A stretch of DNA of 24,000 nucleotides, taken from Pseudomonadota bacterium (GTDB lineage: Bacteria; Pseudomonadota; Gammaproteobacteria; Halothiobacillales; Halothiobacillaceae). The notes beneath the pieces were generated by a model. It was not told where the DNA came from, did not search any database, and saw only the letters and a list, made by a program, of their open reading frames with translations. The DNA lies in NCBI GenBank assembly GCA_040758295.1, contig JBFLVZ010000011.1, forward strand, positions 13,917 to 37,916, read 5' to 3'. Both the position numbers and the translations under genes were made by a program. This document shows positions 625 through 23,181 of this stretch, piece by piece (position 1 is the stretch's first letter; each line of letters opens with the position of its first letter).

Positions 625-3847
<3,223 letters not shown>

Positions 3848-3880
3848 ACCAAGCAGAATCTATCGATCACGCACAAAACT

Positions 3881-3918
3881 TATGGTCATGGGTTTTTGAC
3901 CATATTCACCATATGGTC
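3881..3918. promoter_or_regulatory. Candidate operator or RNA switch: three interlocking copies of the half-site TATGGTCA upstream of the TonB-receptor operon
   Basis: TATGGTCA (3881-3888) is followed after 8 nt by TGACCATA (3897-3904), a perfect inverted repeat. GACCATAT (3898-3905) is followed after 5 nt by ATATGGTC (3911-3918), a second perfect inverted repeat that shares the middle arm. The middle arm overlaps a TTGACC -35-like hexamer (3896-3901). The site lies in the only AT-richer stretch of this region, about 120 nt upstream of the ATG at 4036. Confidence 0.4.
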
Positions 3919-4035
3919 TTTGAGTCCTTTCACCTTTGGGCATCCGTAGGGTGTCCAATAAATCAGTGACTTGGATGTTGGCATGATGGTTGCCCTCCTT
4001 GCCGCGATTTTTTTCGCGCAAGGAGTTCATGTGTC

Positions 4036-6216
4036 ATGCACCGTTCAGTGATCCCCGTGGCGACGATGGTGGCGGGGGCGTGGGCCCTCGTTGCCGCCGC
4101 CGAGCCCACCGCCCTCGACGCGCTTCGCATCGAGTCCACCACGATCGACGACCGATTCGGCCAGCGCCGCGACGAACCCTCGAGCATCGCGGTCATCAGC
4201 GGTGAGGAGGTGGACCGAAGCCATGCCGAGAACCTGCAGCAGATCCTGCAGGCGATTCCCGGCATCACCACCGAGGTCCAGGGGGGCGACTCGATCAAGA
4301 TCCACATCCGCGGGGTCGAGAACCAGCGCTACATGGGGGAGAAGCCCGGTGTGGCGGTCGTGATCGACGGTGTGCCGGTGTTCGAGCGCACCGGGCGGGT
4401 CAACATCGACCTCGACGATATCGAGTCGGTGCGGGTGATCAAGGGAGGGGCGTCCTACCTGTTCGGTGAGGATGCCCTGTCCGGCGCGGTCATCATCACC
4501 ACCAAGCGCGGCGCACAGAAGAACAAGGTTGAGGCCGAGGCGGGCAGTTTCGGCTACCGCAAGGGGCTGGCGCGCGCCGCCGGCCAGTGGGGCGACCTCG
4601 TCGGCCACCTCCAGGCCTCCACCCGCCAGTCGGACGGTTACTGGCATGATTCCGAGTATCGCGCCGACTACCTGACCGGCAAGCTGCAGTGGTTCGCGGA
4701 TGAGCAGAGCGACGTGACGCTCGGCTTCGAGCGCTCCTGGCGCGAAAAGGACAGCCACGGCACGGTGGACGGCATCACCCAGGCCCGGATCGATCCGCGC
4801 AGCGTCGAGGGACAGGACTACGCGCGCATGTACGACGTGGATCTCGGCAAGGTCTTCCTCAACTACAACCGCGATCTCGCCTCCGGCATGAACTGGCTGA
4901 CGAACGTCTACCGCTTCACCGACCACACCCGCTTCGTCTCCTCCCCCCAGCGCTTCGACGCCCGCGGCCGGGCGATCAGCGATCCCAACGCCTACACCAC
5001 CGGCAACGACTACGAACAGGTCCAGCAGGGGGTCAAGTCCGAGCTGCGCGGCACGGCGGGCCGCCTGGCCTGGCTCGGCGCCATCGACCTGCGCTTCAAC
5101 ACCTATGACAATCGCACCTTCAACCTGGTCGACTACAAGACCTCGCCATCCCCGCGCGCCCCGGTGCGGTATGCGGGGGAGGTGACCTCGCAGGACACCA
5201 CCGACGAGACCGTCACCGCCGCCTACGGCGAGTTGCGTTATCGCGCCACCGACGCCTTGACCCTCACCGCCAACCTGCGCCAGGAGCGCATCGCGCTCAA
5301 TTACGATGATCAGCTTCGCAACCTGGGCCTCGACCGCAGCTTCGATCAGACCTCCTGGCGGTTGGGGGCGAACCATGCCCTCGGCAAGGACGCGGACCTG
5401 TTCGCCAACGTCTCCACGGGGTTCCGCATTCCCACCATCCAGCAGTTGTTCGCCGGCACCATCGACCCGCAGGGCAGTACGGCGAGCAACCCGGCCCTTG
5501 CGCCCGAGCGTTCGCTGACCAAGGAGATCGGCGTGCGCGGTCGTATTGCCGCGGGCATCCCGCTGCGCTACGAGGCCGCCCTGTTCCAGATCGACCGCAA
5601 CGACTACATCGTCGCCACGGCCGGCCAGTACGCCGTGCCAGAAACGGGGGAGGTCAACCGTTACGAGAATGTTGGCGGTGCGCGCTCGCGCGGTATGGAA
5701 CTGGCCCTCAGCGGCGTCGTGAATCCGCAATGGTCCTTCGATCTGGCCTACACCCTGCTCGATGCGGAATACACCAGCCACGCCAACTTCAACCTGCTGT
5801 TGGGCGATCGTTGGGGCGGGAACTACCTGATCGAACACTACGACCTGCTTGGCAACAGCATCCCGCGCACCCCTCGCCACCACGCCAACCTGCGCATGCA
5901 CTACCGTCCCTCCGAACCGTGGCTGGTCACCGCGGAGCTGGACACCGTGTCCGGCTACTACGCCGACGAGCTGAACCGCCTGCGCATCGGTGGACACACC
6001 CTCGTCAACCTGTTCGGCTCCTACGAGATCCGGCGCGGCCGAAGCGTGACCTGGACACTGTTCGCGCGCATCGACAACCTGTTCGACCGCGACTACTTCA
6101 ACACCGCGCGCGCCCACTACGACGCCAACGGCGATGGTGTGTTCGACCTGGAGGACACCAGCCTGACCGTCAATCCCGGCCGGGTCTGGACGGCGGGCTT
6201 CAATGCCCAGTTCTGA
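4036..6216 (+). CDS. TonB-dependent outer-membrane receptor, substrate unknown
   Basis: 726 aa. N-terminal signal peptide (MVAGAWALVAAA), a TonB-box-like LRIESTTI, and a plug region (IAVISGEEVDRSHAENLQQILQAIPGI...IHIRGV...VVIDGVPV...IESVRVIKGGASYLFGEDALSGAVIITTKRG). A long beta-barrel follows, ending in the terminal aromatic ...WTAGFNAQF. AAGGAG lies 10 nt upstream. No cysteines. Confidence 0.9.
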   Translation: MHRSVIPVATMVAGAWALVAAAEPTALDALRIESTTIDDRFGQRRDEPSSIAVISGEEVDRSHAENLQQILQAIPGITTEVQGGDSIKIHIRGVENQRYMGEKPGVAVVIDGVPVFERTGRVNIDLDDIESVRVIKGGASYLFGEDALSGAVIITTKRGAQKNKVEAEAGSFGYRKGLARAAGQWGDLVGHLQASTRQSDGYWHDSEYRADYLTGKLQWFADEQSDVTLGFERSWREKDSHGTVDGITQARIDPRSVEGQDYARMYDVDLGKVFLNYNRDLASGMNWLTNVYRFTDHTRFVSSPQRFDARGRAISDPNAYTTGNDYEQVQQGVKSELRGTAGRLAWLGAIDLRFNTYDNRTFNLVDYKTSPSPRAPVRYAGEVTSQDTTDETVTAAYGELRYRATDALTLTANLRQERIALNYDDQLRNLGLDRSFDQTSWRLGANHALGKDADLFANVSTGFRIPTIQQLFAGTIDPQGSTASNPALAPERSLTKEIGVRGRIAAGIPLRYEAALFQIDRNDYIVATAGQYAVPETGEVNRYENVGGARSRGMELALSGVVNPQWSFDLAYTLLDAEYTSHANFNLLLGDRWGGNYLIEHYDLLGNSIPRTPRHHANLRMHYRPSEPWLVTAELDTVSGYYADELNRLRIGGHTLVNLFGSYEIRRGRSVTWTLFARIDNLFDRDYFNTARAHYDANGDGVFDLEDTSLTVNPGRVWTAGFNAQF

Positions 6217-6225
6217 GGAGGCTGC

Positions 6226-7041
6226 ATGAACAGGATATTTCTGGCCCTGTTGGGGCTCGGCCTCGTCATGCCCGCCTGGGCGGGCGGCGAGCTGGCCTGG
6301 CGTCCTCCCGCCCCGGCGGCCGGGCAAGCCTCCCATGGAGGTCACGCCACGAAGTCCTCGGGCTGGCGCCTGGATGGGATGGGGGAGGGCGTGCAGGCGC
6401 GGATGATCGCCCCGGATCTGAGCGTCCACTCCTTGGAGGCACGCGGCGTAGCCTTCCCCATGCCGCGCACGGGAATGGACTACTACCACGCGCTGGTGGC
6501 CAGCCGTGCGGGGGAGTGGCGGGTGGAGACCGCCATCCGCTACGTGCCGCTGGGCGGCCGCCCCTCCGGGCACAGCCCGGCGGAGGTCGTGGCGCTGCCC
6601 AAGGCGCGGCTCGAGATCGTGCCCGATCCCCTGCCGCGCGAGCACTGGCGCTACCAGGGGGACCAGGCGGCACGCTTCGCCCTGCGCTTCGACGGCCAGC
6701 CCTTGGCGGGGCGGGCCATGCGCCTGACCAGCGCGAAGGGGAGCGAGCTCGTCGTCCAGACGGATGCACGCGGCCGGGCCGAGATCGTTGTTCCGGACGA
6801 CCTGGACCCCGCAGCCGGACAGCGGCAGGCTGGGGAGATGACCCTCGTGGCCGAACACAGGGATGGGCAGGGCGTGTTGCACGTCACCACCCTGAGCGCG
6901 GCCTACGCGCCCTCGCCCGCGCACTGGAAGTCCCTGCCGCTCGGCGCCTTCATGGGGGTGGCAGGCCTTGTGGGCGGCCTCGCCGCCCGGCCCCTGCTCC
7001 TCCGCGCCGCCAAGACCCTTCCCAAGAGGAAGACATCATGA
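6226..7041 (+). CDS. Secreted, C-terminally membrane-anchored protein of unknown function; DUF4198-like beta-sandwich by motif resemblance
   Basis: GGAGG lies 5 nt upstream. Signal peptide MNRIFLALLGLGLVMPAWA. SHGGH motif near the mature N-terminus. The segment LEIVPDPLP...ARFALRFDGQPLAGRAMRL...VQTDARGRAEIVVP resembles the periplasmic DUF4198/NikM-type Ig-like domain. C-terminal TM helix (LPLGAFMGVAGLVGGLAA) plus a basic tail. High GC3 codon usage. The family call is from memory, not a search. Confidence 0.55.
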   Translation: MNRIFLALLGLGLVMPAWAGGELAWRPPAPAAGQASHGGHATKSSGWRLDGMGEGVQARMIAPDLSVHSLEARGVAFPMPRTGMDYYHALVASRAGEWRVETAIRYVPLGGRPSGHSPAEVVALPKARLEIVPDPLPREHWRYQGDQAARFALRFDGQPLAGRAMRLTSAKGSELVVQTDARGRAEIVVPDDLDPAAGQRQAGEMTLVAEHRDGQGVLHVTTLSAAYAPSPAHWKSLPLGAFMGVAGLVGGLAARPLLLRAAKTLPKRKTS

Positions 7042-8111
7042 ACCCGCTGAAGAACCTGTCCGTGCTGCGCAAGCTGGTCCAGCTCGCCGCCTTCGTCTTC
7101 CTGGTCTACGGTTCTGCCGTCGTCGGCTTCTACGCCGCTGACAAGCTTTCCGGTGCGTTGCCCGCCCTGGCCTGCGCCTACGATGGCCAGACCGCGGATT
7201 ACTGCGTTCTGGTCCCGGTCCAGCACCAGATGCATCACCGCCTGGGCGAGGTCCTGGTGGGCGGCGGCGAGATCCTCAAGGCGCTGATGCCCACCCTGAT
7301 CTCGCTCGGCACCTTCCTCATCCTGTTCGTCCTGCTGAACAAGGCCTTCTGCGGCTGGATCTGCCCGCTCGGCTTCTTCCAGGAGGTGACCCACCTGCTG
7401 GGGCAGAAGCTCGGCTTCAGGCAGGTGGAATCGCTGTCCGACAAGGTGGTGGACCGCATCCGGCCATGGAAGTGGGCGATGCTCGGCGGCCTCGTGTTCG
7501 GCCTGCCGGTGCTGGCGGGGATGGGGGTGGCGGCGCACGAGCTGGGCAACCCGTTCTGCGACATCTGCCCGAGCCGCATCCTCACCACCCTGGCCACCGG
7601 CGACACCGGGCAGCTGGTCGTCGACACGACCAGCACCACCACCATCGTCCTGTCCATGCTCGGCACCTTTCTGTTCGGTCTGATGGTGGCCCTGGGCATG
7701 ACCCTGCGCCAGCCCTTTTGCCGCATCTGTCCCATGCTTGCCCTGCACGCGGTGTTCCGCAGGCTCGGTCTTGCCCGGCTGGTCAAGCACGCCACCCCGC
7801 GCTGCGATCGCTGCGGCCTGTGTGCGAAGGCCTGCCCGATGGACATCCGCGAGATCCACACCGACATGACGCGCAAGGACGTCACCTTCGCGGACTGCAC
7901 GTTGTGCGGGCGCTGCGTGGAATTCTGCCCGGACAAGGGCGTGCTGCAGATCCGTTACCTCGGCCTGCCGCTGTTCCACTCGAGTCCAGCCTACTTCAAG
8001 GCGCGCAAGAAGGCCCAGACCGAGTGGGAGGCGGTGCGACTTCACACCTTCAAGGGCATTCCCATCGTCCCGGCGCGGGATGAGAGCGCCGCAGGTGAGA
8101 AACGCTCATGA
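7038..8111 (+). CDS. Membrane-bound polyferredoxin, NapH/MauN/YccM/CcoG-like (2x[4Fe-4S] plus CxxCP membrane motifs)
   Basis: Start at ATG 7038 overlaps the upstream stop (ATGA). The track ORF from 5730 is an artefactual N-terminal extension over other genes. 357 aa with about 4 TM helices. Motifs: FCGWICPLG, FCDICPSR and FCRICPM, then two ferredoxin motifs, CDRCGLCAKACP and CTLCGRCVEFCP. Confidence 0.8.
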   Translation: MNPLKNLSVLRKLVQLAAFVFLVYGSAVVGFYAADKLSGALPALACAYDGQTADYCVLVPVQHQMHHRLGEVLVGGGEILKALMPTLISLGTFLILFVLLNKAFCGWICPLGFFQEVTHLLGQKLGFRQVESLSDKVVDRIRPWKWAMLGGLVFGLPVLAGMGVAAHELGNPFCDICPSRILTTLATGDTGQLVVDTTSTTTIVLSMLGTFLFGLMVALGMTLRQPFCRICPMLALHAVFRRLGLARLVKHATPRCDRCGLCAKACPMDIREIHTDMTRKDVTFADCTLCGRCVEFCPDKGVLQIRYLGLPLFHSSPAYFKARKKAQTEWEAVRLHTFKGIPIVPARDESAAGEKRS

Positions 8112-8815
8112 ACGAGCTGGCGCCGCTGGGGTTCTTGTCCGCCCTCCTGCTCGGGCTCTCCTACGGGGCGACGGCGTGCAGCATCGCCTGCGTGCCGCTG
8201 GTCGGCCCGGCCCTGCTTGGGCGCGGGGGCGGTGCGGGCGAGTCGTGGCGGATGGTGGCCGCCTTCTCGCTGGGAAGGGTCAGCGGCTACATGGGCATGG
8301 CCTCGGCCTCCGCCCTGCTGGGGCACTGGATTGCGGGGCTGGACGTGCAGTGGGTCATGCGGCTGTTCGTCGGCGGCGGCACGATGGTGCTGGGGGCGCT
8401 CGTGATCCTGCGCGCGGGGCGGGGCGGCGCCTGCCGGGCGATCCCGCCTTCCGCGAGGGGCGATGTGCCCCTGCCCATGCCTGCGACGCGTCCCAGGAAC
8501 ACGCGCCGGGGCCTGCATCTGCTCGGGGCCTATACCACGGGTTTCGGCATGGCCTTCAGCCCCTGCGCGCCGCTGGCGACGATCCTGCTCGCCGCCGCGA
8601 CCGCGGGCAGCCTCGCCGGGGGCATGCTGCTGGGCGCGGGTTTTGGCCTCGGCGCGGCCCTGCTTCCGGCCCTGCTGCTTGGCTTCGGCGCCTCCGCACT
8701 GGCGCACGAGCTGCGCATGCGGGTGGGGCGCTGGCGGGGCATGCTGGAACGCGGGGCTGGGGCCTTCCTGCTGCTGCTCGGGGCCATGGTCGCCCTGGGC
8801 CGGGTGTCGCTGTGA
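8108..8815 (+). CDS. Polytopic membrane protein, DsbD_2 / UreH-like (CcdA superfamily): putative thiol-electron or metal transporter
   Basis: ATG 8108 overlaps the upstream stop (ATGA). 235 aa and very hydrophobic. It has a TM1 CxxxCxP motif (GATACSIACVPLVGP) and a later SPC..P motif (GMAFSPCAPL), as in CcdA/DsbD-core proteins. A Pro/Arg-rich central loop is present. The family call is from motif memory. Confidence 0.55.
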   Translation: MNELAPLGFLSALLLGLSYGATACSIACVPLVGPALLGRGGGAGESWRMVAAFSLGRVSGYMGMASASALLGHWIAGLDVQWVMRLFVGGGTMVLGALVILRAGRGGACRAIPPSARGDVPLPMPATRPRNTRRGLHLLGAYTTGFGMAFSPCAPLATILLAAATAGSLAGGMLLGAGFGLGAALLPALLLGFGASALAHELRMRVGRWRGMLERGAGAFLLLLGAMVALGRVSL

Positions 8816-8820
8816 GGGCG

Positions 8821-10332
8821 TCAGCCCCGGCGCTTCCGGATCAGGCCGCGCAGGGCGAGGCTGGCCAGTCCCAGGCCGGCCAGCAGCCACAGCGGCCACT
8901 CGCCCCAGCGCACGAACGGGGTGGCGCCTTGCATGGGGGTGATCTCGCCGCGCAGGAGGGCCTGCTCGAACTGGGGTGTGCGCGCCACCACCCGGCCGTG
9001 AGGGTCGATCAGGGCGGAGATACCGGTGTTGGTGGCGCGGGCCATCCAACGGCCGCTCTCCAGGCTGCGCATCGCGGCGATTTGCAGGTGCTGATGCGGT
9101 GCGAGCGAGTCGCCGAACCAGGCGTCGTTGCTGGCGTTGATGAGGAAGCGAGCCTCGGGCAGGGCGAGGCGGATCTCGCGCGAGAGCGCGGCCTCGTAGC
9201 AGATCGAGGCGCCCGCAGGGTGGCCGGCCAGCTGGAGGAGGGGCTGCTCATCCGCCCCGGAGGTGAGGTCGGACATCGGCACCTGGATGAAGGCCTTGAA
9301 CGGCTCGATCAAGAAGCGCAGCGGCAGGAACTCGCCAAAGGCGACCAGGTGGCGCTTGTGGTAGCGCCCTCCGTCCACGGGCAGGGTGATCAGGGCGTTG
9401 TAGTAGTGGCCGAAGCGGTCCTCGTCGAACACCCCGGCGACGATCTGGATACCGTGCTCGCGGGCCTTGTCCTGCATCTCGATCAGGAACGGTGCGGCCT
9501 GTGACACGAGGTCCGGCACCGCCGTCTCCGGCCACAGGATCAGCCGGGCATCCTGGTTCGCCTCGGTGAGCGTGCGGTAGGTCGCCAGGGTGGCCTCGAA
9601 GCGCTCGGGGTCGAACTTGCGCGCTTGTTCCACATTGCCCTGCACGATGGCCACCGACACCGGCTCACCGGCAGGCTGAACCCAGGCGATCTGTCCCAGC
9701 GCGAATCCCAGGCCCCACACCCCGGTCAGCAGCGGCAGGGCGATGCGGGCCGTGCGGCGCTTAAGCAAGCCGACGAGGGCGGCCGCGCTCAGCCCCACGG
9801 CAAGGCCCATGCCGTACTCGCCCAGCAGCGGGCCGTAGCCCGCGAGGGGCGTGGCCAGCATGCTCGCGCCGAGGTTCAGCCAGGGGAAGCCGCCGAGGAA
9901 GATGCCGCGCACAAGCTCCAGCAGCAACCAGGCCAGCGGCAGGGCGAGGAACAGCCGCGCAGGTGTGCCGGGCGCGCTCAGCCGCGCGGCGAGCTCGCCG
10001 GCAAGGGCCGGGAAGGCCGCCGCTACGGCGACGAAGAGGAAGGTGATGAGGCCCGCGATGGGAGCGATGGCGTCACCGAACAGGTGGAGGCTGTTGTAGA
10101 CCCAGCTCACCCCCACGCCGAACTGGCCGAGGCCGAAGGCGTAGCCGATCCAGCGTGCCTCGCGTGGCGTGGCCCCCTGCCAGAGCCAGAACAGCCCCGC
10201 GAGGGCGAGGATGGCGACGGGCCACAGGCCGAAGGGGGCGAAGGCCAGCGGTAGGACTGCACCGAGCGGGAGGGCGAGGAGTCGGGCGGTCCGGGGGGAG
10301 AGGCGTGGCATGATGGGGGGCCGGGGGCTCAA
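8821..10332 (-). CDS. lnt: Apolipoprotein N-acyltransferase
   Basis: 503 aa with an N-terminal polytopic membrane part and a C-terminal CN-hydrolase domain (VAIVQGNVEQ..., ILWPETA..., ASICYEA...). Last gene of the conserved miaB-ybeZ-ybeY-corC-lnt cluster. Confidence 0.93.
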   Translation of the reverse strand: MSPRPPIMPRLSPRTARLLALPLGAVLPLAFAPFGLWPVAILALAGLFWLWQGATPREARWIGYAFGLGQFGVGVSWVYNSLHLFGDAIAPIAGLITFLFVAVAAAFPALAGELAARLSAPGTPARLFLALPLAWLLLELVRGIFLGGFPWLNLGASMLATPLAGYGPLLGEYGMGLAVGLSAAALVGLLKRRTARIALPLLTGVWGLGFALGQIAWVQPAGEPVSVAIVQGNVEQARKFDPERFEATLATYRTLTEANQDARLILWPETAVPDLVSQAAPFLIEMQDKAREHGIQIVAGVFDEDRFGHYYNALITLPVDGGRYHKRHLVAFGEFLPLRFLIEPFKAFIQVPMSDLTSGADEQPLLQLAGHPAGASICYEAALSREIRLALPEARFLINASNDAWFGDSLAPHQHLQIAAMRSLESGRWMARATNTGISALIDPHGRVVARTPQFEQALLRGEITPMQGATPFVRWGEWPLWLLAGLGLASLALRGLIRKRRG

Positions 10333-17024: not shown

Positions 17025-18019
17025 CGATGCCTGCCGGGCCGGCTACCACAGAAATGCTTCACCTCCCACGCCCAGGCATGCTCGATGATGGTGCCCAAGG
17101 CATCGAACTTTGGCGTCCAGCCAAGATCACGACGCGCGGCGGTGGCATCTGCAACCAAACGAGCCGGATCGCCGGGCCGGCGTTCGCCGTACTGGATGGG
17201 GATGTTCAGGCCGGTCACTTCGCGCGCGGTGTCGATGACTTCCTTTACCGAGAACCCGCTGCCGTTGCCCAGGTTGTAGCGGGCGCTCTCGCCCGTTGCC
17301 ATCATGCGCTTGAGGCCGAGCAGGTGGGCCTCGCACAGATCCTGCACATGGATGTAATCGCGGATGCAGGTGCCGTCCGGCGTGTCGTAGTCCGTACCGA
17401 ACACCGTAATTGCTTCGCGTCGGCCGGAGGCGGCTTGGAGGATCAGCGGGATCAGGTGCGTTTCTGGATCGTGCCGTTCGCCGATCTCGCCCTCCGGATC
17501 CGCACCGGCGGCATTAAAGTAGCGTAGGACTGTGGATTTGAGGCCATAGGCCCGGTCGTAGTCTTCGAGGATCTGCTCCATCATCAGCTTGCTGCGCCCG
17601 TAGGGGTTGATCGGCTGCTGAGGGTGCGCTTCGTCCATCGGAGTGTTAACTGGCTCACCAAAGGTGGCAGCGGTGGACGAGAAAATGAAGTTCAGCACCC
17701 CGTGGCGCACCATCGCATCAAGCAGGTTCAGCGTGTTGGCCACGTTGTTGCGGTAGTACTTCGCAGGATCAGTCATCGACTCACCGACTAGGCTGAAGGC
17801 GGCGAAGTGCATCACCGCATCGAACCGGCTGGAGCTAAACAGTCTGTCCGGCAGCACGGAGTCCGCCATGTCACCCTGCACGAGTTCGCCGTAACGCACC
17901 GCATCCGCATAACCGGTGGTCAGGTTGTCCAGGGTGCTGACCTGGTGTCCGGCGCGAGCCAGCATCTTGACCATGTGCGAGCCGATATAGCCGGCCCCGC
18001 CGACAACGAGAATGTTCAT
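17021..18019 (-). CDS. galE: UDP-glucose 4-epimerase
   Basis: 332 aa. Rossmann motif MNILVVGGAGYIGSH, catalytic YGRSK (YxxxK), and colinear with GalE throughout. Confidence 0.92.
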   Translation of the reverse strand: MNILVVGGAGYIGSHMVKMLARAGHQVSTLDNLTTGYADAVRYGELVQGDMADSVLPDRLFSSSRFDAVMHFAAFSLVGESMTDPAKYYRNNVANTLNLLDAMVRHGVLNFIFSSTAATFGEPVNTPMDEAHPQQPINPYGRSKLMMEQILEDYDRAYGLKSTVLRYFNAAGADPEGEIGERHDPETHLIPLILQAASGRREAITVFGTDYDTPDGTCIRDYIHVQDLCEAHLLGLKRMMATGESARYNLGNGSGFSVKEVIDTAREVTGLNIPIQYGERRPGDPARLVADATAARRDLGWTPKFDALGTIIEHAWAWEVKHFCGSRPGRHR

Positions 18020-18130
18020 CTGTTCCTATGTGCTTGAAAAAAGGCCGCGTTATTGCGCCTGAAGGCCAAAACCATTCATGTTCACCTTGCATGGATTGAA
18101 CCGCCCCGGGTTTCGTGGAGGCCATTTGGT

Positions 18131-19045
18131 TCAAGCACAGGCCGCTGATTCGGCCTGCTTGGCGAGTTGCCGGTAGTAGTTTGCCTCAGCCTCGGCGGGC
18201 GGGATATACCCTATGGGTTCAAGCAGCCGGTGGTGGTTGAACCACGCCACCCATTCCAGCGTCGCCAGTTCCACCGCTTCCCGCGTCTTCCACGGCCCGC
18301 GCCGGTGGATCAGCTCCGCCTTGTACAGCCCGTTGATCGTCTCGGCGAGCGCGTTGTCGTAGCTATCGCCCTTGCTTCCCACGGAGGGTTCGACCCCCGC
18401 CTCCATCAGGCGCTCGCTGTAGCGGATGCTGAGGTACTGCGAGCCGCGGTCGGAGTGATGCACGAGACTCCCGTCGCGCTCCGGCTGGCGGGCATAGAGC
18501 GCCTGCTCCAGTGCGTCCAGCACGAAATCGGTCGTCATCGATCGGCTCACCCGCCAGCCGACGATGCGTCGGGCAAACACATCGATCACGAACGCCACAT
18601 ACAGCCAGCCCTGCCAGGTCGAGACGTAGGTGAAGTCCGAGACCCAAAGCTGATTCGGGCGCTCCGCCCTGAATTGCCGGTTGACCCGATCCAGCGGACA
18701 CGGCTGTTGGGGATCGGGCACCGTCGTGCGCACGGCTTTGCCGCGCACCGCGCCGGAGAGACCCAGACGACGCATCAGCCGCTCGACCGTGCAGCGCGCG
18801 ACCTGGGTGCCTTCGCGCTGCATCTGCCGCCAGACCTTGTCCGCCCCGTAGACCGACAGATTGGCTTGCCAGACGCGTTCGATCTCGGGTATCAACCCAT
18901 CGTCGCGTTGCGCACGCGCACAGCGCAGCGCGGGATCGCGCTGGCGCGCCGCATGACTCCGATAGCCCGACGGGGCAATCTGCAAGACTTTGCAGATCGG
19001 CTCGACCCCGAAGGACGCGCGATGCGCGTCAACAAAGGCGTTCAT
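18131..19045 (-). CDS. IS3-family transposase OrfB (DDE integrase core), in the -1 frame relative to orfA
   Basis: 304 aa with an rve-type DDE core (WVSDFTYV..., HHSDRGSQY..., [15 protein letters not shown]). Its ATG overlaps the orfA stop (ATGA at 19042-19045). The -1 frame stays open upstream of the ATG, consistent with an OrfAB frameshift fusion. Confidence 0.9.
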
Positions 19046-19374
19046 GATTTGAGTCGGCGGTCGAGCTCCGCCTGGGCGAAAAACGCGCTCGCCAGCTTGA
19101 GTATCTCGTTCGCCCGGCGCAATTCCTTGACCTCGCGCTCCAGCGCCTTGATGCGCTCGCGCTCTTCGCTGGTGACGCCATCGCGCTGGCCGGTGTCGAC
19201 CTCATGCCGTTTGACCCATTCATGCAGGGTGTGCGGTGAGCAGCCGATCTTGGGGGCGATGGACGCCACCGCCGCCCACGGTGAGGCGTACTCGCCTCGG
19301 TGTTCCTGCACCATGCGCACGGCGCGTTCACGGACTTCAGGGGAATACTTGATTGGCTTGGGTTTCTTCATCAT
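19042..19374 (-). CDS. IS3-family transposase OrfA (HTH / leucine-zipper part)
   Basis: 110 aa: ...[53 protein letters not shown]...[36 protein letters not shown]. This closely follows the IS629/IS3411 OrfA pattern. Confidence 0.9.
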
Positions 19375-19450: not shown

Positions 19451-20860
19451 TCAATAGGCATTCTTGTTGATGAAACCCTTGAAGATCGTCAGGAAGATGA
19501 TCTTCAGATCGAACCACAGCGACCAGTGCTCGATGTAGTACAGGTCGTATTCCACCCGTTTCTTCATCTTCTCGAGCGTGTCCGTCTCACCACGGTAGCC
19601 ATTCACCTGAGCCCAGCCTGTAATACCCGGCTTGACCTTGTGGCGCTTCATGTAGTCATCGATCAGATCCTTGTACTTCTCATTGTGTGCGACCGCATGA
19701 GGGCGCGGCCCCACGATCGACATACGCCCCTGCAGCACGTTAATAAGCTGCGGTAGCTCATCCAGACTGGTGCGGCGCAAGAATGCGCCGATAGGTGTAA
19801 TCCGGGGGTCTCCCTTGCGGGCTTGGGTTACCTGTCCGGCATCCTCGGTATGAACAACCATCGAGCGGAATTTGTAGATCGTGATTTCTCTTCCATCCCA
19901 GCCATGCCTTTTCTGCTTGAAAAGCACCGGCCCAGAAGATGAAAGCTTCACCGCCAGGGCAATGCTCAGGAAAATAGGGCTGAAAATGATCAGGATCAAG
20001 CAACCAAGAACCCAATCTTCCACGCCCTTCACCAGCCTATTCATGCCCGTCATGGGCGTGGTTGAGAGATCCAGCATCGGTATGCCGGCGACCTCGCTGA
20101 CCCCATGGTTGAGCAGTCGGAAGGCGAAGATGTCCGGCACATAGCGGATGTCGGCGGTGCTGTGGCGAAGCAGGTGCAGCGCATCCCGCACCCGAGCCTC
20201 GTCCCTCAGGGGCAAGGTAATCCATACCTCGGCTACGTCATGCTCGCGCAGATAGCCATCAAGCCCAGCCAAATCGTGATGAAGAGGAATGCCTTCAAAT
20301 GTCACGCTCGACGAGGGCTTGTCATCGAATACGGCGACAACATCAAAGCCAGTCCAGTCTAATGATTTTACTCGGCGTAGCAGTTCCCGACCTGCCTCGG
20401 CTTGACCGATCATGACGACGCGCTTCTGGTTTTTACCATGCAGGTGGAACCAGCGAAGAAGGCTATACAGCGCGAGCCGTTCAGTTAGCAAAAAAACACC
20501 CGACAATAGAGCCCAGGTGCTGAGCCATAGGCGTGAATAAGTGTCTGATAATTTGAGGAAAAACAGAAGTAGGATCAGGGTCGCTACCACAGATGCCCAG
20601 CCAATCAACACGCGGCCGAACATGTCGGCCAGATTGGTGCCACGCCAGGATCGGTAAATTCCCATCCCGCTGAAAATCACCAGCAGCAGAAGGACACTAG
20701 TCAGAATCAGCAGAGCATAACGCGAGGGCATGGGGAACCCCGCCACGCCGAAGCGCCACAGGTAGGCGAGGGCGCCAGCAAGGCCAATGAAGATAGCATC
20801 CCCAAACTTTATGAAAAGAGCTGGAAAATCGTGCTCGATGTGCGAAGGACGGCCTGTCAT
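19451..20860 (-). CDS. wcaJ: Undecaprenyl-phosphate hexose-1-phosphate transferase (WcaJ/WbaP-type initiating polyprenyl glycosylphosphotransferase)
   Basis: 469 aa. An N-terminal multi-TM region is followed by a C-terminal bacterial sugar-transferase domain that is nearly colinear with E. coli WcaJ: [122 protein letters not shown] content is visibly lower than in the neighbouring genes. Confidence 0.9.
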
Positions 20861-21073: not shown

Positions 21074-22398
21074 GCAGGCCGTTGAAAAAATGCCCATCGA
21101 AGCGGCCATGTACCCGTTTGCATGGGTCCGAAGCCAGCGCAAGCCGTTTTTTATGGCTCCGACAGCCGCTTGGGCTCCCCCTTTGGGAGCTGCTCGCCCA
21201 TTTTGGGCGCACTGACCCCTGATTCACACATGATGCGCATCCCACCAGCCAGCGATGGAGCCCATGCGCACCAGGTTGTACGCGGCAAAGCACATCAGCG
21301 CCTGCCCTGCCAGCTTGGCATGCCCGATGAGCCGGGTCTTGGCCAGACCGCCCACGGTCTTGCTCCAGCCAAAGGCTTCTTCGATGCGTTTGCGCACCCT
21401 CAGGCTGACCTTATAGCCTTCGTGCCGCTGGGTGCGTGCGTCAATGGCCGAGTGCTTGGCTTTGGCCGCCACGTGCGGGGTCATGCCCAGCTTGCGGCAG
21501 CCTTGGACAAAGGCACGGCAGTCATAGCCCTTGTCCGCCACCACGGTGAGTCGGCGGACTTTGCGCTTTTGGCGCTCGAGCATCTTGAGTGCGGCCTGCC
21601 GCTCGGCCGTGCCGCTGGCATGGGTGATTTCGACGTCCACCACCAGCCCGTGGCGGTTGTCCATGAGGATATGCCCCATGTGGCACAGACGGGACTTGTC
21701 GCCTGCGGCCTTCTTGAACAGCCGCGCATCGGCATCGGTCGTGCTTGCGTGGGTGTCGTTGCGGCGCTGCTCGCCTTTGAAGTCAACCTCGGCGTTTCGC
21801 CCCGCAGTCGGTGTGTGGTCGTCGTCTTTGCGCTTGAAGCTTTTGTGCGAGGCCCAGGCCTCAATGAGTGTGCCGTCGACGCTGAAGTGCTCGTCGCCGA
21901 TCAACTTTGCCCACTGCGCGGTGTATTTGACCCGCTCGAAGAACATACGGGCGAGGTCTTCGTTGAAGAGGCGCTCGCGGTTGGCGCTGAAGGTGGAGTG
22001 GTCCCAGACCTTGTCCTCGATGTTCAGGCCCACGAACCAGCGGTACAGCAGGTTGTAGTCGATGGCCTCCACCAGCAGCCGCTCGCTGCGGATGGAAAAC
22101 AGGATCTGCAGCAGCAGTGCCTTGAGCAGCATTTCGGGCGGCACCGAAGGGCGGCCACGGCGGGCATAGACCGCCTCGAACTCTGTGCTCATGCTGGCCA
22201 GCAAGGCATCGACCAGTGCCCGCAGCTTGCGCAGCGGGTGCTTGGCCGGGACCCGCTCTTCGATGCTGATGTAGCTGAACATCGCCCCCTGAAAGTTCTG
22301 TGTGCCTCTCATCTTCGCCGTCTGCTGTCTCGTCGTCGCCGTGGCTCACATGGTACCGGCAGCACGGACGGCTGCGGGGGAGTTTTTCAACGGCCTGC
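21074..22398 (-). mobile_element. IS5-family insertion sequence (~1325 bp) flanked by a TA duplication
   Basis: Perfect 16-bp terminal inverted repeats, GCAGGCCGTTGAAAAA at 21074-21089 and its reverse complement at 22383-22398. Similarity continues 6 nt further inward with 2 mismatches. TA lies on both flanks (21072-21073 and 22399-22400). The element encloses a single transposase ORF. Confidence 0.85.
21224..22312 (-). CDS. IS5-family DDE transposase (InsH-type N-terminal domain plus DDE_Tnp_1)
   Basis: 362 aa: ...FSYISIEERVPAKHPLRKLRALVD...GRPSVPPEMLLKALLLQILFSIRSERLLVEAIDYNLLYRWFVGL...FSVDGTLIEAWAS...LTVVADKGYD...RKRIEEAFGWSKTVGGLAKTR. Confidence 0.88.
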   Translation of the reverse strand: MRGTQNFQGAMFSYISIEERVPAKHPLRKLRALVDALLASMSTEFEAVYARRGRPSVPPEMLLKALLLQILFSIRSERLLVEAIDYNLLYRWFVGLNIEDKVWDHSTFSANRERLFNEDLARMFFERVKYTAQWAKLIGDEHFSVDGTLIEAWASHKSFKRKDDDHTPTAGRNAEVDFKGEQRRNDTHASTTDADARLFKKAAGDKSRLCHMGHILMDNRHGLVVDVEITHASGTAERQAALKMLERQKRKVRRLTVVADKGYDCRAFVQGCRKLGMTPHVAAKAKHSAIDARTQRHEGYKVSLRVRKRIEEAFGWSKTVGGLAKTRLIGHAKLAGQALMCFAAYNLVRMGSIAGWWDAHHV

Positions 22399-22482
22399 TA
22401 GGAGCTCGATGCGTACGCCATTCCGATGGGGACAGTGTCCTGAGTTACTACAGAAGGACTATGTCGCCCAATGGGGCTCGTT

Positions 22483-23181
22483 TCACGGCATGCTCGACTC
22501 CAGCAGACATTGTGCCAGACGAAAATCGAAGGCGGTGTCGATGTCCACCGATCGCTCTGCCGGCATGACATGGGCCAAGGTTTCTTCGGTGAGGAAGCTT
22601 CGCGTTTGCAGCAGCCAGTCGACCCGCGCTACGTAAATCGCGCCGTTGAGGGCGTAGAGTGTCGGTATATCCTGCCGCCGTGCGGGGCGCTGCTCAGGAG
22701 GGAGAAAGGAGTGCATACGCCCGTTATTGTTCAGGCTGAACATCCACCATGGCGAGGCACTCGCTTCGCATACGCTCACGCAGGCGGGAGCGCCGCCCGC
22801 AAGACAGTGCTCGATGGCGGCATCGATGTCTCCGACTGTGCGCAGCGGTGAGGTGGGCTGCAGAAGCACCACCCAGTCGAAGCCCGGAAGGATGTCGAGC
22901 GCGTGCAAGACGACGTCGATTCCAGGGGTGTCGTCCCGCGCCAGCGCTTGTGGGCGCACGAAAGGAATCTCTGCGCCGCATGCCCGGGCTACGGCCAGGA
23001 TCGATTCGTCGTCGGAGGACACCACTACCCGCGTCACATATCTGGAGGCCTTGGCAGCTTCGATGCTCCAGCCGATCAGCGGCTTGCCGTGCAGCGGGCG
23101 GATGTTCTTGCCGGGCAGGCCCTTGCTGCCCCCGCGCGCGGGGATGAGGGCCAGGATTCTCGGTCGTTCTTTCTCAGCCAT
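22483..23181 (-). CDS. CMP-nonulosonic acid synthetase (acylneuraminate cytidylyltransferase family; NeuA/LegF/PseF-like)
   Basis: 232 aa. N-terminal ALIPARGGSKGLPGKNI motif, QPTSPLR motif and NGAIY motif, typical of the CTP_transf_3 family. It overlaps the upstream gene by 8 nt. Confidence 0.85.
   Translation of the reverse strand: MAEKERPRILALIPARGGSKGLPGKNIRPLHGKPLIGWSIEAAKASRYVTRVVVSSDDESILAVARACGAEIPFVRPQALARDDTPGIDVVLHALDILPGFDWVVLLQPTSPLRTVGDIDAAIEHCLAGGAPACVSVCEASASPWWMFSLNNNGRMHSFLPPEQRPARRQDIPTLYALNGAIYVARVDWLLQTRSFLTEETLAHVMPAERSVDIDTAFDFRLAQCLLESSMP

Follow-up and report, generated by a model that had tools for sequence, protein, structure and literature searches.

Known systems and the four-gene module

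Bacterial copper import is poorly understood compared with copper export. For passage across the inner membrane, one type of importer is established, the CcoA-like proteins of the major facilitator superfamily, and YcnJ-like systems were still uncharacterized in a 2020 review (PMC7558416); the pairing of a TonB-dependent copper receptor with a reductase was first described in 2026 (PMC12914433, PMC13038864). Here, we analyzed a four-gene operon (g1–g4, hereafter the module) in a 24,000-nucleotide stretch of DNA, the window, from a Pseudomonadota bacterium of the family Halothiobacillaceae (assembly GCA_040758295.1, contig JBFLVZ010000011.1, positions 13,917 to 37,916 of the forward strand). 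The module codes for a TonB-dependent receptor of the outer membrane, a secreted and membrane-anchored protein, an inner-membrane polyferredoxin, and a DsbD_2 protein, and its closest functional analogue is the cruR-crtA-crpH system of Bordetella pertussis. It is probably a TonB-dependent metal uptake system coupled to reduction, using inner-membrane proteins unrelated to those of Bordetella, and we propose, with slightly more belief than doubt, that it acquires copper for the respiratory cuproenzymes (heme-copper oxidases and N2O reductase).

In B. pertussis, as in the module, a TonB receptor is co-transcribed with an inner-membrane protein, there proposed to be a copper reductase of the periplasmic face; the system serves heme-copper oxidases, its loci sometimes add ExbBD/TonB, PCuAC, and ScoI, and its receptor has no conserved Cys or Met (PMC12914433, PMC13038864). 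Unlike the module, it relies on CrpH, a heme-binding PepSY_TM protein, where g3 is an Fe-S polyferredoxin, and it contains neither a DUF4198-like binder nor a DsbD_2 partner. Regulation is exerted by the upstream open reading frame (ORF) CruR in Bordetella, whereas the module has a sigma-54 promoter or RegA-type boxes. Nor is g1 a close relative of the receptor CrtA, whose structure (9RVQ) is missing from the PDB matches of g1 at E ≤ 1e-10, and no PepSY_TM gene lies in the operon. A pair similar to the Bordetella system is oprC-PA3789 of Pseudomonas aeruginosa.

The polyferredoxins CcoG, YccM, NapH, and MauN resemble g3 in their Fer4_5 membrane domain, Cx2-3CP motifs, and two cytoplasmic [4Fe-4S] motifs, and YccM has an equal length and architecture. 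CcoG, the cupric reductase of the ccoGHIS cluster, reduces Cu(II) and not Fe(III), and YccM is its short homologue (PMC7558416). However, g3 differs from CcoG and NapH in lacking both the immunoglobulin-like FixG_C domain and any cco or nap context, and the invariant periplasm-facing C46, C56, H63, H67, and CDICP motif belong to g3 alone when it is set beside CcoG, YccM, and NapH. For g2, the likeness is to Zcp of Neisseria gonorrhoeae (Zn) and to IsDUF4198 (Ni), which have the same fold, are secreted, and often adjoin TonB receptors, but g2 has no N-terminal histidine brace and has its own PDPLPREHxxY motif and C-terminal membrane anchor. Finally, g4 shares with CcdA/DsbD and the DsbD_2 proteins (COG2836, UreH-like) six transmembrane (TM) helices and cysteines in TM1 and TM4, and it departs from CcdA/DsbD in having four conserved cysteines and usually no thioredoxin-like partner. 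To our knowledge, no member of the DsbD_2 family has a demonstrated substrate.

A comparable logic is found in the PepSY-DUF4198-DUF2271-ApbE iron clusters, where an outer-membrane receptor or periplasmic binder and a transmembrane electron carrier alter the redox state of the metal before or during transport (bioRxiv 10.1101/2021.01.07.425746). These clusters and the FtrABCD iron system nevertheless differ from the module in their protein families, their metal (iron), their control by Fur, and the lack of a DsbD_2 component. In FtrABCD, which follows that logic too, the polyferredoxin is FtrD. Because NCBIfam holds no model for g2 or g4, the database names of g3 relatives are all generic, and a full-text literature search found no system of similar composition, we consider the module to perform TonB-dependent reductive uptake by a so far uncharacterized composition, in agreement with the initial annotation of the locus, which had been made from the sequence alone and knew of no named match.

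Gene order and protein families

Four plus-strand genes at 4036–8815 fill the interval between ybeL and lnt:

4036–6216, plus strand: g1, 726 residues, TonB-dependent outer-membrane receptor
6226–7041, plus strand: g2, 271 residues, secreted two-beta-sandwich protein with a predicted distant DUF4198 fold and a C-terminal TM anchor
7038–8111, plus strand: g3, 357 residues, NapH/YccM-type inner-membrane polyferredoxin
8108–8815, plus strand: g4, 235 residues, DsbD_2 (CcdA-superfamily) six-TM protein

The genes are packed as first described, with the TGA stop of g1 (6214–6216) followed by GGAGGCTGC (6217–6225) and the ATG of g2 at 6226, and with ATGA overlaps joining g2 to g3 (7038–7041) and g3 to g4 (8108–8111). 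ybeL, a DUF1451 gene, ends at 3847, and lnt lies on the minus strand with its stop at 8821, convergent with g4 (stop 8813–8815), so placed that 5 nucleotides separate both stop codons. The initial annotation had set the operon as accessory content in a conserved leuS-ybeL...lnt-miaB frame free of any regulator gene, and this proved correct: leuS, ybeL/DUF1451, lnt, corC/ybeX, ybeY, phoH/ybeZ, miaB, and glmS flank it in the window, Escherichia coli K-12 has the same ybeL-lnt frame with unrelated cargo in the slot, and no regulator gene lies between ybeL and lnt. No terminator-like hairpin was seen at the g4/lnt convergence (8813–8823). ORFs antisense to g1–g3, up to 959 residues long (e.g., minus strand 4045–6924), have Arg/Gly/Ala-rich translations and are artifacts typical of ~67% guanine-cytosine (GC) content, not genes.

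The assignment of g1 to the TonB-dependent receptors was borne out by a plug domain (PF07715, 75.9 bits) and a b-barrel (TonB_dep_Rec, PF00593, 176.3 bits), both above their cut-offs, behind a signal peptide. Conservation is high in the plug and at M100, H191, H241, and H615. The protein contains no cysteine at all and therefore cannot carry the CxxxM/HxM copper site of OprC. Its best NCBIfam subfamily is a siderophore receptor (187 bits), and against the PqqU equivalog it reaches 158.6 bits for a cut-off of 1200.

Following the signal peptide, g2 consists of an all-beta ectodomain, a C-terminal TM helix (residues ~236–254), and a basic tail. It had been read as DUF4198-like, which its Pfam score does not carry (PF10670, 19.7 bits for a cut-off of 34, limited to residues 126–190) but the fold does: the AlphaFold model, with a predicted local distance difference test (pLDDT) of 89, found gonococcal Zcp (E 1e-8) and the Ideonella Ni-binding IsDUF4198 (E 1e-7) as its best PDB matches by Foldseek, at a probability of 1.00, template-modeling scores of 0.42–0.55, and 12–18% identity. 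As judged from this model, g2 belongs to a distant DUF4198 fold. The PDPLPREHxxY motif and H88, H140, Y143, D192, and Y227 are invariant in the g2 alignment (A1), while the SHGGH stretch singled out by the initial annotation, though present, sits in a variable His-rich region and is not conserved. The mature protein is predicted to start with Gly, not His, and A1 shows no conserved His at the N-terminus, where the Ni protein has its His brace. Since a profile search against PDB sequences gave only Ig-like adhesin repeats, H88 and H140 could not be mapped onto the metal site of Zcp, a His triad. A profile search of 1.84 billion proteins returned 415 representatives, and by these sequences g2 appears to form a separate small clade.

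Pfam and NCBIfam agreed with the reading of g3 as a NapH-type polyferredoxin, with Fer4_5 at 49.9 bits together with dicluster domains, and no FixG_C or Fer4_18 match was found at E ≤ 0.01; no nap or mau genes are present in the window, and no cco genes lie nearby. The two CX2CX2CX3CP cluster motifs announced for it are there (CDRCGLCAKACP and CTLCGRCVEFCP), and so are three membrane motifs (CGWICP, CDICP, and CRICP), the first of which is Cx3CP and not CxxCP as had been stated. The protein ends ~60 residues past the second cluster motif. Hydropathy and the positive-inside rule predict four TM helices, with both [4Fe-4S] motifs, CGWICP, and CRICP on the cytoplasmic side, and with C46, C56, H63, H67, and CDICP (C174/C177) in periplasmic loops. 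These loop residues are all invariant, as are all cysteines of the protein. YccM of E. coli aligns with g3 from end to end (25% identity, E 4e-17) but without the periplasmic Cys/His. Orthologues of g3 keep ~70% identity across Gammaproteobacteria, against ~40% for g2 and g4.

A word-based search for g4 homologues gave 11 proteins only, and the g3 and g4 alignments were built instead from the fetched loci described below. The DsbD_2/CcdA-superfamily assignment holds, with 54.7 bits against Pfam DsbD_2 (PF13386, cut-off 24.9) over residues 12–225. Its motifs are CSIACVP (CxxxCxP, in TM1) and SPC (SPCAP, in TM4), and four cysteines are conserved in 82 sequences: C24 and C28 in TM1, C109 in a large cytoplasmic loop, and C153 in TM4. 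The predicted topology is CcdA-like, six TM helices with both termini outside, and C28 and C153 retain the CcdA-type cysteine pair; a TlpA/ResA-like acceptor gene is found in ~8 loci, not in the window. An envelope-spanning order, from receptor to inner-membrane conduit, had been proposed for the four products; this order is a topology predicted from hydropathy.

The module in other genomes

A degenerate-pattern scan with the g2 alignment yielded 80 loci, one per species, whose six-frame ORFs were then searched with the window proteins. Co-occurrence of the four families in this order, raised as a question in the initial annotation, was found in ~80 other species. They are Gamma-, Beta-, and Zetaproteobacteria, with a single locus from Campylobacterales, and include Sedimenticola, Candidatus Thiodiazotropha, Amphritea, Thiohalomonadales, Halothiobacillaceae, Zetaproteobacteria, Rhodocyclaceae, and Competibacter. 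The nearest genomes are a Pseudomonadota metagenome-assembled genome (94% g2 identity) and Thiofaba sp. EF100 (91%), where the operon occupies the identical slot.

The g2-g3-g4 triad is contiguous and in unchanged order in 78 of 82 loci; of the four exceptions, one lies at a contig end, one has an insertion, and in two a further receptor gene separates g3 from g4. This further gene, found in two Rhodocyclales loci (L071:11653–13614 and L072:11713–13623; loci are given by L numbers), encodes a TonB-dependent receptor that is not OprC-type. Three loci sampled from the g3 side, independently of g2, recovered the same cluster. Where room allows, a receptor-sized ORF lies directly upstream of the triad, except in Amphritea and a few other loci. 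Because this upstream receptor is a g1 orthologue in only ~27 loci, g2-g3-g4 can be regarded as a constant core to which the receptor is exchangeable.

ExbB-ExbD genes lie within ~5 kb of the module in 58 of the 82 loci. The initial annotation had inferred a redox-coupled route, which fits the conserved pairing of a polyferredoxin with a TonB receptor that usually has its own ExbB-ExbD-TonB; it had also called the route self-contained, which does not apply to the window, where the ExbB-ExbD-TonB genes that most related loci have are absent.

Two loci carry a paralogous cluster a few kb from the main module (L058:1–4261 and L036:4827–9162). Its genes encode a double-cubane-cluster reductase (NF040772, 364.6 bits, cut-off 350) and the adenosine triphosphate (ATP)-dependent activase of this enzyme (TIGR00241), together with a g3-like polyferredoxin and a DUF4198-like protein; the L058 copy adds a DsbD_2 protein resembling g4. 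A low-potential, ATP-driven reductase connected to such a g3/g4-like pair may be the more unusual system.

Copper genes beside related loci

The substrate had been left open in the initial annotation, and the window itself indeed names no metal; the context of related loci favors copper. Orthologues of OprC with both CxxxM and HxM adjoin the module as separate genes in seven loci of Beta- and Gammaproteobacteria, the copy of L083 matching PDB 6FOK at E 1.5e-154 with both ligand motifs conserved. In L039, the operon runs into oprC, SCO1 (131.8 bits), and PCuAC (137 bits), and in L085 and L089, PCuAC follows TonB, which brings the related loci with PCuAC to three overall. A Solemya symbiont carries the module directly upstream of nosZ and nosD, and Rhodocyclaceae loci have NosL, a further DsbD_2 gene, and a copper P1B-ATPase (552 bits) nearby. 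Across the loci, the recurrent metal-related neighbors are all copper genes, and znu, nik, cbi, urease, hydrogenase, and siderophore genes do not recur next to the module in the related loci examined. In the Sedimenticola loci, TonB is followed by a TlpA/ResA-like thioredoxin. Published findings on related proteins also agree with copper: CcoG reduces Cu(II) (PMC7558416), Zcp has a structure with Cu bound, and HMA-fused DsbD_2 proteins are members of the CsoR copper regulon (PMC4938975).

Two candidate lines of copper evidence were set aside. The P-type ATPase beside Sedimenticolaceae modules is of the Ca type and not a heavy-metal ATPase, and was dropped. SCO1 in the Rhodocyclaceae loci L083 and L072 lies several kb from the module and was given little weight, the regB-senC-regA linkage known elsewhere being a further reason to discount it.

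Some of these loci show additional features. The DsbD_2 gene of the Solemya pervernicosa gill symbiont, called with only 79 residues (L087:8039–8278), may be truncated or a pseudogene, and the Crp-like gene upstream is split into two calls. Rhodocyclaceae carry a four-gene set near the module (L078:2543–7318, L076:16916–20252, and L071:2583–5595) with a Met/His-rich protein of ~115 residues, a protein of ~180 residues, a copper P1B-ATPase with an unusually long N-terminus, and a DsbD_2 protein that was seen in L078 and has an HCxxMCGG motif; this is a second pairing of a DsbD_2 gene with copper genes. A Sel1-repeat protein with HAHHQHH is encoded right after g4 in L083 (12722–13330), and also in L075, L072, L078, and L076, with a weak MerG-like match (38.6 bits).

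Promoter and regulation

The leader upstream of g1 contains the following features:

3848–4035, plus strand: leader/regulatory region, 188 nucleotides (nt), GC 0.505
3867–3873, other strand: TGCGTGA half-site
3882–3903: inverted repeat ATGGTCA(8 nt)TGACCAT, candidate activator/operator site
3898–3918: inverted repeat GACCATAT(5 nt)ATATGGTC, overlapping the first repeat, candidate
3961–3973, plus strand: integration host factor (IHF)-like site AATCAGTGACTTG, one deviation from the consensus WATCAANNNNTTR
3979–3994, plus strand: predicted sigma-54 −24/−12 element TGGCATGATGGTTGCC (GG-N10-GC), matching TGGCAC-N5-TTGCW
4020–4025, plus strand: ribosome-binding site AAGGAG, at 10 nt from the ATG of g1

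The leader is AT-richer than the genes (GC 0.65–0.77), as had been observed. A sigma-70 promoter scan found no site, and an Rfam scan found no riboswitch or leader RNA in 3848–4035. The sigma-54 element is identical in L003 and L004, and elements of this kind, placed after the repeats and before the receptor start codon, were counted in 23 of 61 loci, compared with 43 of 1145 control windows (3.8%). The repeats at 3882–3918 are 65–100 nt upstream of the −24/−12 element, a position that fits a sigma-54 enhancer, and tandem palindromes occupy the equivalent position in most related loci. Both repeats are conserved in L003; because the second is lost in Thiofaba (L004), their role as activator site is uncertain. 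L046/L085 and L016 also have IHF-like sites a short way upstream of the −24 element. Genes next to the module encode sigma-54 activators in L085 and L089 (short, AAA+ plus HTH_8) and in Amphritea (longer), while the window encodes no sigma-54 activator gene. A minus-strand terminator-like match (3904–3881) was discarded, being the first inverted repeat itself at a place where no minus-strand gene ends.

A 22-codon ORF at 3983–4051 (MMVALLAAIFFAQGVHVSCTVQ) overlaps the start of g1 out of frame, and is probably untranslated because its start lies inside or upstream of the predicted sigma-54 promoter. It was considered as a CruR-like sensor and rejected, having no CxxC and a start inside or upstream of the −24/−12 element. 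A hairpin (CGCGA-T6-TCGCG, 4003–4018) stands just before the ribosome-binding site and would be located 5′-terminally in the transcript.

In the Rhodocyclaceae, Competibacter, Mariprofundaceae, and Thiohalomonadales loci, the repeated unit is the 17-base-pair (bp) palindrome TGCGACAnnnTGTCGCA, derived from 49 sites that differ from the 15-bp core GCGACAnnnTGTCGC at no more than one position. The box described for RegR is GNGRCRTTNNGNCGC, and RegR sites begin TGCGACA or TGCGTCA, e.g., TGCGACATCGGCGGC (PMC5506826, PMC4064962). By its sequence, the palindrome fits this box and would be a RegA/RegR-type site. A Crp/Fnr-type regulator gene lies upstream in L083, L063, and L072, and its product was considered as a possible palindrome binder; a RegR box is tentatively favored over a Crp-family site because the palindrome is odd-centered, with 17 bp. 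RegB/RegA genes adjoin the module in three loci from three bacterial classes (L012, L059, and L084), and in L012 the regBA pair is divergent from the module with the boxes in the shared spacer. A larger cluster of histidine kinases from 27 loci was not retained as RegBA, as it is heterogeneous (its L058 member is PhoPQ-like) and true pairs occur in only these three loci.

This type of box is also found ahead of oprC in L062, L075, and L083 (and in L078, where the site has two mismatches), ahead of another receptor that is not OprC in L061, L076, and L079, and ahead of the tonB-exbB-exbD operons in L083, L068, L076, L077, and L079. Because the RegA-type box is common to the module, oprC, and the tonB operons, we suggest that copper uptake is tuned by the respiratory redox state. 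Exact dyad enumeration in gammaproteobacterial upstream regions gave nothing, and k-mer enrichment was partly confounded by the AT-rich composition of intergenic regions and by closely related genomes. Inspection of upstream regions by eye, without a formal scan, showed no Fur-, Zur-, or NikR-like box.

Proposed function and alternative explanations

We propose that g1, energized by TonB, would import copper or a chelate of it through the outer membrane, and that g2, a DUF4198-fold binder held at the inner-membrane surface by its C-terminal helix, would capture it. Electrons from the cytoplasmic [4Fe-4S] clusters of g3 would then pass to its periplasmic Cys/His site and reduce Cu(II) to Cu(I), and g4 would either conduct Cu(I) inward or supply thiol reducing power that keeps copper-handling cysteines reduced. 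In the window, transcription would start from the sigma-54 promoter with its upstream repeats, and in Beta- and Zetaproteobacteria and Competibacter, the RegA/RegR-type boxes would link the module to the redox state of the respiratory chain. In this scheme, the transfer of metal from g2 to g3 and on to g4, the direction in which electrons and metal move, and a permease role of g4 are inferred. A stronger version is only tentatively put forward: g3 and g4 might represent a new class of inner-membrane reductive copper importer, an Fe-S periplasmic Cu(II) reductase with a CcdA-fold, cysteine-lined Cu(I) channel, fed by a tethered DUF4198-type chaperone and switched on by RegBA or a sigma-54 activator.

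Several observations weigh against copper acquisition as proposed here. The window has no copper gene nearby, and the copper context comes from ~12 of ~88 loci, all in other genomes; the ArsR/SmtB regulator of Sedimenticola is uninformative on the metal. In the window leader, a clear RegA box was not found, only the TGCGTGA half-site, and RegA-type control points to redox regulation and not to copper sensing. As for the proteins, g1 is not OprC-type, as the CxxxM and HxM ligands are missing, and its nearest solved relative is YncD/PqqU (6v81/9c4o, E 5e-30), PqqU being a transporter of pyrroloquinoline quinone (PQQ). The binder g2 lacks the N-terminal His of the characterized DUF4198 proteins and matches the family by fold alone, and the physiological metal of those proteins is Zn or Ni. 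The best NCBIfam match of g3, NapH/MauN (TIGR02163), reaches 69.8 bits for a cut-off of 213, g3 has no FixG_C domain and is not a CcoG orthologue, and CcoG is believed to act on copper of the cytoplasm and not of the periplasm. The AlphaFold model of g3, built from a 28-sequence alignment, is unusable at a pLDDT of 48.9.

The alternative that survives best, which we regard as possible though improbable on balance, concerns g4 alone. It could be a CcdA-like exporter of thiol reductant instead of a permease, in which case copper would be delivered only to the periplasm, never crossing the inner membrane by way of the module, and the cysteines of the g3 loop, Sco, and CuA sites would be kept reduced. 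The TM1/TM4 cysteine pair and the N-out/C-out topology of g4 are what such an exporter would have, the clients NosZ, CuA, PCuAC, and Sco are periplasmic, the invariant periplasmic cysteine pair of g3 would need reducing, and in Sedimenticola the TlpA/ResA-like thioredoxin follows the module. However, a thioredoxin-like partner is encoded in only ~8 of 82 loci and not in the window, g4 has two further conserved cysteines, from CxxxC and C109, and the DsbD_2 family includes HMA-fused proteins that belong to the CsoR copper regulon of Firmicutes (PMC4938975).

We consider it unlikely that the module imports a different metal, Zn, Ni, Co, or Fe, with g3 reducing a chelate such as a ferric siderophore to free the metal. 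Solved DUF4198 proteins bind Zn in the case of Zcp and Ni in the case of IsDUF4198 (PMC12663993, PMC12537917); structures of Zcp exist with Zn, Cu, or Co bound (PMC12663993). DUF4198 genes accompany PepSY reductases and TonB receptors in the Fur-controlled iron clusters, the siderophore-receptor match of g1 leans the same way, and g2 would offer Fe(III) suitable hard ligands in its invariant His, Glu, Asp, and Tyr. A soft metal, in contrast, is favored by the cysteines of g4, four of which are conserved; no Fur-, Zur-, or NikR-like box was noticed in the inspection by eye, and only copper genes recur among the metal-related neighbors.

Least likely among the alternatives, and very improbable in our estimation, is uptake and reduction of a substrate other than a metal, a redox-active compound of organic or sulfur nature (for example, a quinone like PQQ, a disulfide, or a polysulfide), for which speak the PQQ transporter YncD/PqqU as the nearest solved relative of both receptor types, the sulfur oxidizers that make up most carriers, and the paralogous cluster that couples g3-/g4-like genes to an ATP-driven double-cubane reductase acting on small molecules, but against which stand the PqqU equivalog score so far below its cut-off, the fold of g2, which is that of periplasmic metal binders, the neighbors, which are copper chaperones and enzymes and not quinoprotein or sulfur-carrier genes, and the presence of the module in iron oxidizers and heterotrophs (Amphritea and Dechloromonas).

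Other features of the window

Beyond the operon, an insertion sequence lies on the minus strand at 17871–19374, with overlapping ORFs at 19042–19374 and 18131–19045 and an ALIL frameshift pseudoknot at 18971–19087 (Rfam RF01497, 113 bits), the sole Rfam match in the window. It is probably of the IS3 family, an assignment drawn from the ALIL match and the overlapping ORFs and not from a transposase family search. A 504-residue ORF on the plus strand (21122–22636) has no NCBIfam match at E ≤ 1e-10 and adjoins an undecaprenyl-phosphate glucose phosphotransferase gene (19451–20860, minus strand).

Possible implications for copper supply in the carriers

Carriers of the module include sulfur-oxidizing symbionts, iron oxidizers, and denitrifiers, in which copper supply limits N2O reductase and the cbb3 oxidase; sulfide in their habitats is expected to make copper scarce. 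If copper acquisition is the true function, the module would be a second and mechanistically different solution to the problem met by the Bordetella system, with Fe-S in place of heme and with a DsbD_2 partner, and it would give a first testable function to three widespread families that so far have none, the short YccM-like polyferredoxins, the DsbD_2 proteins, and this DUF4198-like clade. Should the more tentative importer model also hold, periplasmic Cu(II) would be reduced by an Fe-S protein, a reaction so far proposed only for heme proteins like CrpH, and the need for copper would be sensed through the performance of the copper oxidases and not through copper itself.

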